From the NCBI GenBank assembly GCA_965248055.1, contig CBDFIJ010000004.1, positions 1,344,001 to 1,408,000 of the forward strand: a stretch of DNA of 64,000 nt, given 5' to 3'. Each line of letters opens with the position of its first letter. Positions within the stretch are counted from its first letter, which is position 1. A program made the position numbers and the translations under genes. The notes beneath the pieces are model-generated. The model saw nothing but the letters and a program-made list of their open reading frames with translations, searched no databases and was not told the origin of the DNA. Shown piece by piece: positions 35,041-54,935 of this stretch. Source of the stretch: Candidatus Multivoradales bacterium. GTDB lineage: Bacteria; Acidobacteriota; Thermoanaerobaculia; Multivoradales; JAHEKO01.

Positions 35041-35148
35041 CTCCCCTAAGTGCCAGATGAGATGAGTCGGTCGGTCTCCAAGCTGGGACAATGTGCCAGT
35101 TTGGATCAACCAAAGAAATCGGCATCTAGCCGAGAAAGGAGACCGACC

Positions 35149-36162
35149 ATGGAGTATCTTGGCATTGACGTTCACTCAAAGTACAGCGAGGTATGTGGGA
35201 TATCTCAGGAGGGTGAGGTGACGGTTCGTCGTCGGATTTCGACGACGGAGACGTCGATCCGTGGGTTCTTCGGTTCTCGTGAGCGTGCACAAGTGACGCT
35301 GGAGAGCGGTCCGGTGACGCCGTGGGTATATCGGTTGCTGTGTGATCTAGGTCATGCGGTAACGGTAGTCAATCCCCGGCGAGTGCGTTTGATTGCCGAA
35401 TCGACACTAAAGACCGACGGCATTGATGCCGAGGTTTTAGCTCGGCTGAGCCGATTAGACCTGGGGTTTCTGCGTCCGGTGTATCAGCGAAGCCCTGAGG
35501 CCCAGGAGCTTCGCACTCGTTTACGGGTGCGATCGGCTCTGGTTAAGTCTCGGACTTCGTTGATCAACGCGGTACGTGGGACTCTGCGTGCTCAGGGCTA
35601 CCGGATGCCTTCGTGTGCGGCCAAGATTTTCATGGTGCGTTACGAATCGATGGGATTCGATTCGGGAGTATCAGAGGCCCTGGCTCCCTTGGTATCGACG
35701 ATCGGTGAGCTGTCGGATCGGATCTGTGAGCTAGAGAATGACCTGAAAGCTCAAGCAAGTACCGATGAGCTTCTCGTTCGTCTGCAGACAGTGCCCGGGG
35801 TAGGGCCTCTGGTGAGCTTGGCTTTTGCCGGCTGGGTAGACAATCCAGATCGGTTTCAAAAGAGTCGAGATGTTGGAGCATGCCTGGGCTTGAGGCCCTC
35901 GCTTCGCAGCTCAGGAGGGCATGAGATCCGTGGCCGGATCACTCGGGAGGGGGATAGCGAGATGCGCCGACTCCTGGTCCAGGCTGCGCATGCATCTTTA
36001 CAGTGTCACAAGGACTCAGCGCTCAAGCGCTGGGGTGAGGGTTTGGTGGCAAGGCTAGGTAAGAGCAAAGCAGTGGTAGCGCTGGCTAGAAAGATCGGAG
36101 TCCTACTGCATAGGTTGTGGGTCACAAACGAGAATTTCCAGCCGTTTCCACAAGCCACATAA
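35149..36162 (+). CDS. IS110-family DEDD recombinase/transposase
   Basis: YLGIDVH, KTDGIDA, VPGVGP, GLRPSLRSSG and ALARK. Confidence 0.95.
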   Translation: MEYLGIDVHSKYSEVCGISQEGEVTVRRRISTTETSIRGFFGSRERAQVTLESGPVTPWVYRLLCDLGHAVTVVNPRRVRLIAESTLKTDGIDAEVLARLSRLDLGFLRPVYQRSPEAQELRTRLRVRSALVKSRTSLINAVRGTLRAQGYRMPSCAAKIFMVRYESMGFDSGVSEALAPLVSTIGELSDRICELENDLKAQASTDELLVRLQTVPGVGPLVSLAFAGWVDNPDRFQKSRDVGACLGLRPSLRSSGGHEIRGRITREGDSEMRRLLVQAAHASLQCHKDSALKRWGEGLVARLGKSKAVVALARKIGVLLHRLWVTNENFQPFPQAT

Positions 36163-36421
36163 GCGAGGATTCGAAGTAAGAAAGCAAGAGAAATCAGTCA
36201 TGAGTTTCAAAGGACGGATGAAAAGTTTCGATGACTCCGATAAATGGGTTGGAGGCTGGGACTCCGCGTGCCAGATGGGAGCATCGAATTTCCTCAACAG
36301 ACGGAAAACTCACCATGCACCGGTCCAAAGACGGACCCAAGAGAGTGCGAATAGAAGCTCGTCCTGAGGTTAGATCCGAATCTAAAGAACGCATGATCGA
36401 TGGAAAGAAAACCCTTGACTG
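36163..36421 (+). ncRNA. Candidate bridge/seek RNA region of the IS1111 element
   Basis: Long 3' non-coding region containing GTGCCAG (36268, left target plus core) and ATAGAAG (36351, left donor plus core). Confidence 0.65.
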
Positions 36422-36486
36422 GACCGCCCGACTCATAGAAGCCGATTACTTGCAAGGTTGGGAACCTACGTTGCGTCTCCATTCCT

Positions 36487-37374
36487 ATGAGCCGCCGACT
36501 TCGATTCATCCCACCCGGTGGGGCGCTGGTAGAAATCACCTGCCGTACCTTTCAAGGGCGTTACCTCCTCAAGCCGTCTCCCGCTGTCAATCGGTGCATC
36601 CTGGGGATTCTCGGGCGGGCTCAGAGACTCTACCCCACCGAGGTCCATGCCTTTGTATTCATGTCGAATCACTACCATCTCTTGGTCTCAGTACCCGACG
36701 CTCAGCGCATGGCGCAATTCGTCGGCTACCTCAACAGCAATCTGGGACGCGAGTTGGGCAGAATGCATGGATGGAACGGGAAGTTTTGGGATCGCCGTTA
36801 TCAGGCCATCGTAGTCAGCGAAGAGGAAGCGGCTCAAGTGGCTCGACTTAAATACCTGTTGAGCCAAGGAGTCAAAGAGCGCTTAGTTAGACGTCCCACT
36901 GACTGGCCAGGTCTCCATGCTGCCAAGATCCTCCTGGCTAGTAATAGCACGATCACAGGCCGCTGGCGCGACCGAACACGCGAGTACCACGCCAGAGGAG
37001 CAGGCAATACGCAGGTATTTATGTGTATCGAACGACTCCACCTAACGCCCCTTCCATGTTGGCGTGATCAAACTACGCTTTGGATGCGACAACGAGTTCA
37101 AGAACTCGTCGACCTAGTCTGTGAAGAGAATTCCGGCCAAATCGTTGGAGATCCGCCCAATCCCAAACCCACCAAGCGTCCTGCCAGAATCAAGAGATCC
37201 CCAGTTCCACTTTTTCACTGTGCCACCAAGGCAGCCCGCAAAGCACTCTACGAAGCCTACTCCTGGTTTGTTGCCGCCTACAGGGATGCTTGTGAGCGAC
37301 TCAAAGCTGGGCACGAAAACGCCACCTTCCCTCCGGGATCGTTCCCACCGCCCAGACCATTCGTTCCTGTCTAG
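36487..37374 (+). CDS. RAYT-like HUH Y1 transposase, full copy 1
   Basis: HAFVFMSNHYHLL (HUH), FWDRRY and KYLLSQGVKE...PTDWPG. Confidence 0.88.
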   Translation: MSRRLRFIPPGGALVEITCRTFQGRYLLKPSPAVNRCILGILGRAQRLYPTEVHAFVFMSNHYHLLVSVPDAQRMAQFVGYLNSNLGRELGRMHGWNGKFWDRRYQAIVVSEEEAAQVARLKYLLSQGVKERLVRRPTDWPGLHAAKILLASNSTITGRWRDRTREYHARGAGNTQVFMCIERLHLTPLPCWRDQTTLWMRQRVQELVDLVCEENSGQIVGDPPNPKPTKRPARIKRSPVPLFHCATKAARKALYEAYSWFVAAYRDACERLKAGHENATFPPGSFPPPRPFVPV

Positions 37375-40370: not shown

Positions 40371-40461
40371 TCGGGTGGCACCTTTCCGGCCCGCACCGGA
40401 CCTCTTTAGAGCACCTACTTAGACATGTCCAACGATTGGTGTCCACCTCTACCAACAAACA

Positions 40462-41743: not shown

Positions 41744-41767
41744 TCGGGTGGCACCTTTCCGCAGTTG

Positions 41768-44828: not shown

Positions 44829-45048
44829 TCGGGTGGCACCTTTCCGCAGAGCACTGCAGTGTGGCACCTCAATCCAATCAGCGGTTCCGGCACCACAATC
44901 ACAGAAGTTCCATTTTCGGCGTAATCTCTGCCACCAACTAGGCACTCTGAAGCACCTACGCCGACCCCAATGCGTGATCCTAGGCCTCCAAATAATCGCC
45001 TGGCACCATTATCTCCTCTATCTCCTCTATCTCCTCTATCTCCTGTTT

Positions 45049-50956: not shown

Positions 50957-50977
50957 TCGGGTGGCACCTTTCCGGCC

Positions 50978-53784: not shown

Positions 53785-54935
53785 CTCCCCTAAGTGCCAG
53801 CTGATTATTTGCAAGGTTGGGAACCTACGTTGCGTCTCTATCCCCATGAGCCGCCGACTTCGATTCATCCCAGCCGGTGGGGCGCTGGTAGAAATCACCT
53901 GCCGTACCTTTCAAGGGCGTTACCTCCTCAAGCCGTCTCCCGCTGTCAATCGGTGCATCCTGGGGATTCTCGGGCGGGCTCAGAGACTCTACCCCACCGA
54001 GGTCCATGCCTTTGTATTCATGTCGAATCACTACCATCTCTTGGTCTCAGTACCCGACGCTCAGCGCATGGCGCAATTCGTCGGCTACCTCAACAGCAAT
54101 CTGGGACGCGAGTTGGGCAGAATGCATGGATGGAACGGGAAGTTTTGGGATCGCCGTTATCAGGCCATCGTAGTCAGCGAAGAGGAAGCGGCTCAAGTGG
54201 CTCGACTTAAATACCTGTTGAGCCAAGGAGTCAAAGAGGGCTTAGTTAGACGTCCCACTGACTGGCCAGGTCTCCATGCTGCCAAGTTACTCCTGGCAAG
54301 AAATAGCACGATCACAGGCCGCTGGCGCGACCGAACACGCGAGTACCACGCCAGAGGAGCAGGCAATACGCAGGTATTTATGTGTATCGAACGACTCCAC
54401 CTAACGCCCCTTCCATGTTGGCGTGATCAAACTACGCTTTGGATGCGACAACGAGTTCAAGAACTCGTCGACCTAGTCTGTGAAGAGAATTCCGGCCAAA
54501 TCGTTGGAGATCCGCCCAATCCCAAACCCACCAAGCGTCCTGCCAGAATCAAGAGATCCCCAGTTCCACTTTTTCACTGTGCCACCAAGGCAGCTCGCAA
54601 CGCCCTCTACGAAGCCTACTCCTGGTTTGTTGCCGCCTACAGGAATGCTTGTGAGCGACTCAAAGCTGGGCACGAAAACGCCGCCTTCCCTCCGGGATCG
54701 TTTCCACCGCCCAGACCATTCGTTCCTGTTTAGTTGATTCCGTTCCGTTTGGGTTTTATCGGCGCTTAGGGATTGGTATATCCAGTCCGAGTTTCTCCCC
54801 GTCCAAGAGCTAAACCGCTGAGTGAAAGTTCCGTTTCGGCGTGAATGAGATCACGAACTTGACGTGTTCAAGATAGCCGTGATCAGCCCAATCAAAGAAT
54901 CCTAGATTCTCTCAATAATCGCCTGGAACCTCAGT
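53785..54935 (+). mobile_element. Complete RAYT-like element with imperfect inverted end motifs
   Basis: Left end GTGCCAGCTGATTATT, gene, 180-bp trailer, right end AATAATCGCCTGGAACC. Confidence 0.75.
53846..54733 (+). CDS. RAYT-like HUH Y1 transposase, full copy 5
   Basis: 295 aa, near-identical to 36487-37374. Confidence 0.88.
   Translation: MSRRLRFIPAGGALVEITCRTFQGRYLLKPSPAVNRCILGILGRAQRLYPTEVHAFVFMSNHYHLLVSVPDAQRMAQFVGYLNSNLGRELGRMHGWNGKFWDRRYQAIVVSEEEAAQVARLKYLLSQGVKEGLVRRPTDWPGLHAAKLLLARNSTITGRWRDRTREYHARGAGNTQVFMCIERLHLTPLPCWRDQTTLWMRQRVQELVDLVCEENSGQIVGDPPNPKPTKRPARIKRSPVPLFHCATKAARNALYEAYSWFVAAYRNACERLKAGHENAAFPPGSFPPPRPFVPV

Follow-up and report, generated by a model that had tools for sequence, protein, structure and literature searches.

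An insertion sequence interrupts the end motif of a Y1 transposase element

We analysed a 64,000-nucleotide stretch of a Candidatus Multivoradales genome (contig CBDFIJ010000004.1, positions 1,344,001 to 1,408,000; hereafter the window, numbered from its first letter), in which an insertion sequence (IS) of the IS1111 type lies upstream of a gene for a Y1 (HUH) transposase that resembles the REP-associated tyrosine transposases (RAYTs; REP, repetitive extragenic palindromic). In what follows G000 denotes the window genome, C4 its contig, A to D its transposase-bearing copies of the IS, and L-numbers individual loci. The features that define the insertion are:

35050–35056 (+): left target, GTGCC (35050–35054) plus the AG core (35055–35056); the left target guide repeats this 7-mer
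35055–36439 (+): the IS, delimited from the filled and empty sites and from four genomic copies that are 99.9–100% identical
35055–35061 (+): left extension of 7 nt, AGATGAG, made up of the core AG and the right donor ATGAG
35062–35074 (+): left subterminal inverted repeat ATGAGTCGGTCGG, complementary at 12 of 13 positions to 36424–36436 and conserved in relatives
35149–36162 (+): recombinase gene (337 amino acids), with an AGGAG ribosome-binding site upstream
36424–36441 (+): right end, with the subterminal inverted repeat CCGCCCGACTCAT (36424–36436), the extension AGA (36437–36439) and the target's own AG (36440–36441)
36442–36449 (+): right target CCGATTAC, the start of the left end of the Y1 element
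36487–37374 (+): RAYT-like Y1 (HUH) transposase gene (295 amino acids) of the invaded element
53785–53816 (+): uninterrupted paralogous site, before a 98%-identical Y1 gene

The filled site consists of CTCCCCTAAGTGCC (35041–35054), AG (35055–35056), ATGAG...CATAGA (35057–36439), AG (36440–36441) and CCGATTACTTGCAAGG (36442–36457), or, with the termini of the IS written out, ...CTCCCCTAAGTGCC-AG-[ATGAGATGAG...CCGACTCATAGA]-AG-CCGATTACTTGCAAGG.... The empty site reads CTCCCCTAAGTGCC-AG-CTGATTATTTGCAAGG, with GTGCCAG at 53794–53800, and runs on into its own Y1 gene copy. Comparison of the two leaves AG alone ambiguous and reveals no target duplication, as in the IS1111 group. The IS is 1385 bp long, occupying 35055–36439 with the AG counted at its left end, which is the convention of Siddiquee et al., or equivalently 35057–36441 with the AG counted at its right, and it sits between GTGCC and AGCC, inside the left-end motif of the Y1 element. 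A first-pass annotation of this DNA, made from the letters alone, had reported these two sites, and on re-reading the window all of its site sequences and coordinates hold; its insertion point and IS1111-type assignment are likewise borne out by the site comparison and the family features, while its span of 35041–36460 takes in flanking DNA beyond the IS proper.

Subterminal repeats, extensions and a long 3' non-coding region set IS1111 elements apart from the IS110 group in the accounts of Siddiquee et al. (PMC11187229) and Durrant et al. (PMC11208160), the former mentioning "the required 7 bp extension at that end". Here, the 13-nt subterminal repeats are accompanied by extensions of 7 nt on the left and 3 nt on the right, and the non-coding regions measure 94 nt 5' of the recombinase gene versus 277 nt 3' of it. 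The 7-nt left extension is present in every relative whose left end could be read.

The recombinase has the N-terminal RuvC-like DEDD and C-terminal Tnp domains of the IS110 family, matching DEDD_Tnp_IS110 (PF01548, 3.7e-22) and Transposase_20 (PF02371, 1.1e-19) in Pfam and NF033542, "IS110 family RNA-guided transposase", in NCBIfam (236.9 bits, cut-off 140). It also aligns with the IS621 structure 8wt6 (chain 8wt6_A, E 2.4e-10), placing D7, E52, D90, D93 and S255 on the catalytic residues of IS621, whose roles are described in PMC11208158, so that the catalytic D, E, D, D and Ser of the family are present; S255 is borne by the GL-P----SG motif at residues 247–256 (GLRPSLRSSG). Since the closest plasmid-borne relatives are at most 37% identical at the amino acid level, this is a new IS within a known group.

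Copies of the element share one target and one polarity

The window genome holds four transposase-bearing copies, three of them full with 100% identity and the fourth truncated with 99.9%. None of the four has lost its reading frame, and the full copies retain both ends. A further four loci (L005–L008) are solo 3' fragments.

Copy A: the window copy, 35055–36439
Copy B: C4:2104283
Copy C: C4:1144165, minus strand
Copy D (L004): C4:804843–806096, truncated in the downstream region

With a slash marking the junction, the left junctions of A, B, C and D all read GTGCCAG/ATGAG, and GTGCCAG also precedes remnant L007, so the flanks of the other copies are not unrelated to that of the window copy. 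Right junctions read CATAGA/AGCC in A and L005 and CATAGA/ACCC in B, C and L006, giving A[G/C]CC at 5/5 intact right ends. Polarity relative to GTGCC and A(G/C)CC is the same in every copy, as in site-specific insertion in one orientation. When a relative genome is counted as well, the left junction is AG in 20/20 transposase-bearing copies (four here and sixteen there) and in L007 and L008, while the right junction is AG in three cases (A, L005 and, in the relative genome, L022) and AC in four (B, C, L006 and, in the relative genome, L021).

The same junctions might be read the other way round, with GTGCCAG belonging to the IS or being a target duplication, and the Y1 element a later arrival beside the IS ends. 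GTGCCAG does lie to the left of all copies, and B and C, which sit at the opposite end of an inverted Y1 gene, share 1871 identical bp on their right, ending in ...CCTTGCAAATATTTGG-CTGGCAC, the reverse complement of the target motif. However, the motif stands without any IS at 53785–53816 and upstream of the two Y1 genes of G053, a genome free of the IS; the contexts of copy D and of the remnants L005 and L006 are different; and the left 7-mer of sister elements differs and yet matches their own guide. We consider this reversed reading extremely unlikely.

Guide segments in the 3' non-coding region change together with the target

The 277-nt 3' non-coding region contains GTGCCAG at 36268–36274 and ATAGAAG at 36351–36357. 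Shuffles of the window gave 9.74 and 4.23 occurrences of these 7-mers, respectively, per 64 kb on both strands, from which simple arithmetic puts the expectation on the sense strand of this region at ~0.02 and ~0.009, and jointly at ~2e-4. The predicted guide RNA has the following parts:

36227–36288 (+): target-binding module, made up of an outer stem, the right target guide, an apical hairpin and the left target guide followed by AU
36242–36249: right target guide AAAUGGGU, on the 5' side of the loop
36268–36274: left target guide GUGCCAG, on the 3' side of the loop
36309–36357 (+): donor-binding module, made up of a candidate right donor guide, a hairpin and the left donor guide
36309–36315: tentative right donor guide, CUCA(CCA)
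36317–36321 with 36343–36348, enclosing 36322–36326 with 36333–36337: donor hairpin
36351–36357: left donor guide AUAGAAG, equal to the last five bases of the element plus AG at the predicted circle junction ...CATAGA/AGATG...

We searched 401 genomes of the class and found the recombinase, at E <= 1e-40, in 53. Both ends could be defined for 28 elements (39–81% amino acid identity, ~16 targets), with the window element and three sister-lineage loci, and the right end only for one more; L037, L040, L049 and L059, in which an end is missing, were left out of the flank statistics, and the guide of L039 was set by hand from the alignment. The 7-mer at the GTGCCAG position was compared, for each element, with the adjoining 5 nt of left flank and the 2 nt that open the element, and it agreed at 7/7 positions in 17 elements and 6/7 in eight, with agreement at 5, 4 and 1 positions in one element each (n = 28). 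Around 16 different 7-mers occupy this position, for example GAGCCAG, GCGAGAG, GUACCUG, CCCAGAG, UGCCGAG and CCCAUAG. Likewise, the segment that immediately precedes the apical hairpin can pair with the core and right flank, its longest complementary run being at least 8 nt in 15 elements, 5–7 nt in eight and 4 nt or fewer in five. Over 24 distinct guide sets the mean match of cognate versus non-cognate pairs was 6.25 versus 3.72 on the left and 7.04 versus 3.34 on the right, and 0/10,000 permutations reached the observed value on either side.

The two segments thus read opposite strands, overlap at the insertion point and covary with the target, as the segments of seekRNAs and bridge RNAs do, and this covariation, together with the arrangement described in the literature, identifies GUGCCAG as the left target guide and AAAUGGGU as the right target guide. 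The first-pass annotation had already picked out GTGCCAG as the left target guide, a proposal that the match to own left flanks across the 28 relatives confirms, and the covariation with target on which it staked its guides is seen across ~16 targets. It had found the right-hand guides not clearly identifiable by eye; the right target guide is now located, the right donor guide tentatively so.

Selection of the target by the protein, or by DNA structure at REP-like hairpins, would leave the 7-mer matches of an otherwise ordinary IS1111-type element as leftovers or chance. Many targets do lie near hairpins or palindromes, folding of single sequences is not significant, and the window site is a poor match for the right target guide. 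Against this, the guide columns and flanks change together over ~16 targets with 0/10,000 permutations as good, sisters of ~80% identity differ exactly at the guide positions and targets, and dependence on a seekRNA has been demonstrated experimentally for ISEc11, ISPa11 and ISKpn4, as reported in PMC11187229. We therefore consider targeting without an RNA guide very unlikely.

Two further segments were rejected as guides. GGCUGG at 36254–36259, the complement of CCAGCC, could serve as a right target guide by its sequence, but lies in the apical hairpin loop and does not track the target in relatives. A third GTGCCAG lies in the 5' non-coding region (35093–35099) and stays the same in a sister lineage whose own target is GTGACAG. 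This third copy belongs to a palindrome-like stretch, CTGGGACA(A/C)TGTGCCAG (35079–35099, +), that is common to all close relatives whatever their target and might serve as a protein site or form a hairpin in the leader RNA.

Sister lineages carry changed guides and changed targets

Two sister lineages of the window element are carried by a metagenome-assembled genome (MAG) labelled Candidatus Multivoradales (Acidobacteriota, Thermoanaerobaculia):

Window element: 4 copies; target GTGCC-A[GC]-CC; left guide GUGCCAG; right guide AAAUGGGU
Sister 1: 79% amino acid identity; 14 copies; target GGTGAC-AG-GATAC(N)TAT; left guide GUGACAG; right guide (A)GUAUCCU
Sister 2: 81% amino acid identity; 2 copies; target GT[TG]CC-A[CG]-CCTTT; left guide GUGCCAG; right guide AAAAGGGU

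The GUAUCCU of sister 1 is exactly complementary to AGGATAC, and the AAAAGGGU of sister 2 is exactly complementary to ACCCTTTT, which flanks one of its copies. On these sequences, the sister elements are naturally reprogrammed at about 80% identity.

A conserved stem-loop scaffold carries the guides

As in seekRNAs and bridge RNAs, the guides are placed in the loops of a conserved stem-loop scaffold. In the outer stem of the target module, 36227–36233 and 36235–36238 pair with 36278–36288, leaving a bulged A at 36234. Across the relatives 89.7% of the cells of this stem are paired, one pair alternating between GC (14), CG (13) and UA (1), and its covariation score was 0.189 versus 0.081 after shuffling (0/500 shuffles) and no more than 0.071 when the partners were slid. 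The apical hairpin (36250–36254 with 36262–36266 in the window element) folds in 28/28 elements from unrelated sequences of 19–44 nt, and the donor hairpin (GCAC.../...GUGC plus an inner stem) folds in 26/28, the exceptions being L050, from which it is deleted, and L052, in which it is weak. Each 7-mer occupies the 3' side of a loop that conserved stems delimit, which agrees with the internal-loop position that the first-pass annotation had set as a check. Because the hairpins of variable length were misaligned by MAFFT, RNAalifold recovered no more than the outer stem and the invariant GCAC/GUGC stem; these hairpins were then examined sequence by sequence. Rfam covariance models gave only a chance-level match (E 0.49), which lay inside the coding region.

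The left donor guide follows the right extension of the element, reading AUAGAAG where the extension is AGA and AUGGAAG throughout the clade with GGA, and this switch substantiates the earlier assignment of ATAGAAG as the left donor guide. An exact left-donor match was found in 24/27 elements with both ends read, with failure in the L033/L041/L043 clade. The 7 nt before an invariant UGCACC are CUCACCA in the window element, and their CUCA can pair with TGAG of the left extension; at the same position most elements with an AGATGGG extension have CCCA, and a distant AGATGAG clade again has CUCA. Read against the joined donor ends, the left donor guide matches at 7/7 positions and the right donor guide over 4 nt with weak covariation.

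A bridge (seek) RNA is the favoured explanation for targeting

With the anatomy, copy flanks and covariation of guides and stems directly observed, we conclude that the window IS, an IS1111-group element of the IS110 family, is very probably active and directed to its target by a bridge (seek) RNA made from its 277-nt downstream region. This is a known mechanism, represented here by a new IS with unusually legible natural guide-target pairs. We infer RNA expression, circle formation, the chemistry of strand exchange and the promoter by homology with ISEc11 and IS621. In the target module, AAAUGGGU would pair with the top strand of the core and right target, and GUGCCAG with the bottom strand of the left target and core. 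In the donor module, AUAGAAG would read the joined ends of the excised circle (...CATAGA/AGATGAG...), and the upstream CUCA probably reads TGAG of the left end. The recombinase-RNA complex would recombine the left junction (LT-AG-RD; left target, core, right donor) with the right junction (LD-AG-RT; left donor, core, right target), releasing a circle whose predicted junction is ...CCGACTCATAGA-AG-ATGAGATGAGTCGG.... The target module would then bind GTGCC-A(G/C)-CC and the donor module the circle junction, with strand exchange at the 2-nt core giving insertion in one orientation without duplication.

Junction promoters are reported for the IS1111 family in PMC11187229, and here the circle junction would set an outward-facing -35-like TTGACT (36415–36420, +) 17 nt before GAAGAT, a hexamer existing only across the junction, as a plausible weak promoter. 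CTTGAC is retained in 27/29 aligned right ends, the exceptions being GTTGAT (L032) and CCTTGC (L045).

Several observations weigh against this explanation. The right target guide is a poor fit to the site of the window copy, where its longest complementary run is 3 nt and agreement reaches 6/8 positions only if one rU-dG wobble is allowed, and the two target guides conflict at the second core base, where the left reads AG and the GU of the right guide expects AC. L033, L038 and L056 (3/28) fit their own left flanks badly. The permutation test ignores the relatedness of the elements, although common descent is unlikely to be the sole cause of the covariation because there are many distinct targets. 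The right donor guide is weak, with four contiguous pairs, covariation at one position, and L053 and L051 as exceptions. We found no conserved stem closing the donor loop, the side-to-side duplexes being weak and out of register across relatives, and single-sequence folds were no better than those of shuffled sequences (z = -0.11 for 279 nt, -1.2 for 176 nt). The minimum-energy fold also pairs 3 nt of each target guide with the other, although some mutual pairing is expected because both read opposite strands of overlapping sequence. The free 9-mer GTGCCA[GC]CC occurs 113 times versus 95 expected by chance, so that the 9-mer alone does not predict occupancy. The empty site at 53785–53816 is paralogous rather than orthologous; an orthologous one was not found in the same-genus genome G053, which matches only 57/757 nt of the left flank. 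None of the sequencing runs listed is an RNA run. Finally, contigs of four runs from one sample, which may be the assembly's own, contained neither the circle junction nor the excised site, a result that is uninformative either way as contigs cannot reveal rare circles; loose contig ends in these runs reproduce flanks already present in the assembly.

The missing circle and excision joint would also suit a view of the copies as dead relics, spread by segmental duplication after RNA-guided activity was lost, as would the identical 3.26-kb block that holds B and C, the one truncated and split copy and the four solo 3' fragments. Yet near-perfect identity among the copies, the frame kept in four and both ends in three, and the correct target in at least three different flanks all speak for recent activity, and contigs are blind to rare circles, leaving the relic reading only a slim chance.

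The core conflict coincides with a lineage difference, as the right target guide ends in GU in the window lineage and in CU in all other lineages. A guide disagreement on the core (TG, GT, CG) was also seen in the L033/L037/L041/L043 clade, whose boundaries are not set with confidence. In addition, the left-target-guide DNA and the AUGG that follows it copy the element's own left junction (LT-core-RD). A joint proposal, that the target guides are deliberately discordant (AG versus AC) and that the guide DNA with AUGG acts as a pseudo left end, is speculative and in our judgement unlikely. If true, discordant guides would let one RNA accept both GTGCC-AG-CC and GTGCC-AC-CC, variants found at Y1/REP inverted ends and hairpins, and the pseudo left end would yield transposase-less derivatives of ~170 bp starting at the guide, such as L007 and L008, which may be mobilisable in trans or mark guide-directed self-deletion.

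The target is the end motif of a multicopy Y1 element

The invaded gene matches Pfam Y1_Tnp (3.1e-9, 37.4 bits versus a cut-off of 23), while the NCBIfam model for REP-associated tyrosine transposases, NF047646, scored 51.4 bits, below its cut-off of 80. The RAYT label of the first-pass annotation is therefore qualified here to RAYT-like. RAYTs are usually single-copy; in this genome the Y1 gene has 16 tblastn matches, comprising full-length copies and fragments.

The motif GT[GTA]CCA[GC]CCGA(A/T)T lies ~45 nt upstream of 10/12 full-start Y1 genes, and one of the exceptions is the window copy, in which the IS splits it. In the IS-free, same-genus genome G053 each of two Y1 genes has an unoccupied GGTGCCACCCGA(A/T)T upstream, and one of them also has an inverted copy of the motif on its far side, resembling the REPs around RAYTs. 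Genome-wide, GT[GTA]CCA[GC]CCGA was counted 36 times versus 14.8 expected from base composition, and GTGCCA[GC]CC[GT][ACT][TA]T 14 times versus 3.2. A multicopy RAYT-like Y1 element and related REP-like hairpins carry the 9-bp target as their terminal motif, and the IS therefore lands in the ends of another mobile element. The first-pass annotation had taken such targeting as a sign that these sites are functional and recurrent; the motif counts and Y1 flanks uphold recurrence, but function does not follow from targeting.

Further along the window, four near-identical ggaaagGTGCCACCCgaatgttggaggtatgtcaaac copies lie on the minus strand within 11 kb (~40373–40381, 41746–41754, 44831–44839 and 50959–50967), interspersed with Y1 gene fragments (C4:1385770, 1394980 and 1395816). 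Here, REP-like sites cluster with decayed Y1 elements. Elsewhere, the left flank of L006 (C4:1487858–1487917), just downstream of a Y1 gene, has CACCTGGCACGCTCT, CTGGCACGCTCT and CACCTGGTACCCTCT in tandem, which may be the other end of that Y1 element.

Relation to known RNA-guided insertion sequences

The window element resembles ISEc11, ISXne4 and the other IS1111 elements with seekRNAs in PMC11187229 in its subterminal repeats, 7-nt left extension and lack of duplication, in encoding its guide RNA in a long 3' non-coding region, and in having the top-strand-pairing segment 5' of the bottom-strand-pairing one, the two overlapping on the target. In that group, too, close relatives are redirected by changes confined to the two segments, and the recombinase of 337 amino acids falls within the 330–350 given there for the family. 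It differs from ISEc11 and ISXne4 in lineage, in host phylum (its nearest relatives being in the Candidatus Multivoradales MAG, Acidobacteriota) and in target; in addition, its target guides disagree at one core base.

With IS621 (PMC11208160, PMC11208158) the element shares a DEDD plus Ser recombinase with aligned catalytic residues, a two-loop RNA with left and right guides for both target and donor, a 2-nt core common to donor and target, and insertion into repeated (REP) sequences; the strand rule is also the same, the left target guide taking the bottom strand and the right one the top (PMC11208158). However, IS621 as described in these two papers belongs to the IS110 group and encodes its RNA at the left end, the left target guide preceding the right one, whereas the window element has its RNA at the right end, the guide order reversed, a core of AG rather than CT, and long subterminal repeats.

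Other family members also strike repeated sites: IS4321 and IS5075 the terminal repeats of another transposon, ISPa11 and ISPpu9 REP sequences, and ISPpu9 and ISPpu10 were compared too as IS1111/IS110 members specific for such sites. The window element is set apart from IS4321/IS5075, ISPa11 and ISPpu9 by its target, the end motif of a RAYT-like Y1 family. ISPpu9 leaves solo 3' modules in its genome as well, but its solo module is described as a separate small RNA gene unneeded for transposition, while the solo fragments here are the distal guide region itself.

The element thus provides a well-resolved natural example for a branch of the bridge/seek-RNA recombinases, IS1111, that has received less study than IS621, with all four guide positions mapped (the right donor tentatively) and ~16 natural guide-target pairs from one bacterial class. 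The sister pair shows reprogramming by a few substitutions, and sets of this kind help to infer rules of guide length (a left target guide of 7 nt and a right one of up to 9–10 nt here) and the tolerance of the core. The window element also documents, in an uncultivated Acidobacteriota lineage, a mobile element specialising on the end motif of another, the RAYT-like Y1 element and its REP-like sites.

Duplicated, split and solo copies

Copies B and C lie in identical blocks of ~3.26 kb (C4:2104274–2107536 and C4:1142294–1145556), each consisting of the IS and 1871 bp with an inverted Y1 gene and bounded by GTGCCAG ... CTGGCAC, whereas the flanks outside the blocks differ. Either a Y1 element carrying the IS in its end has moved, or the IS struck two identical elements independently. 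Copy D ends at ~36309 in window numbering and L005 (C4:683411–683555) starts at ~36312. The two pieces share a strand and are separated by 121 kb, with the 3' one coming first, an order that integration of a circular 121-kb segment could produce, as could a rearrangement breaking the element within the donor-guide region.

L007 (C4:2189021–2189188) and L008 (C4:2181139–2181311, minus strand) are diverged (~82%), transposase-less 3' remnants that start exactly at the left-target-guide DNA, with a target-like flank followed by GTG(C/A)CAG-ATGG.... This suggests that they arose by deletion, or through a mini-circle, via the 10-nt identity of the left junction and the guide DNA. L008 bears GTGACAG and is located in a GAATACGGTGAC-AG-GTTAC site, so the sister lineage was once present in this genome.

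The target 12-mer of that sister lineage, GTGACAGGATAC, has 11 occurrences in the window genome. These 11 sites, all unoccupied, make up a second repeat family, (A)ATACGGTGAC-AG-GATAC..., with examples at C4:1102653, 2170290 and 3253807; it is the target of the sister IS in the related MAG, and of that IS the window genome has kept only the remnant L008.

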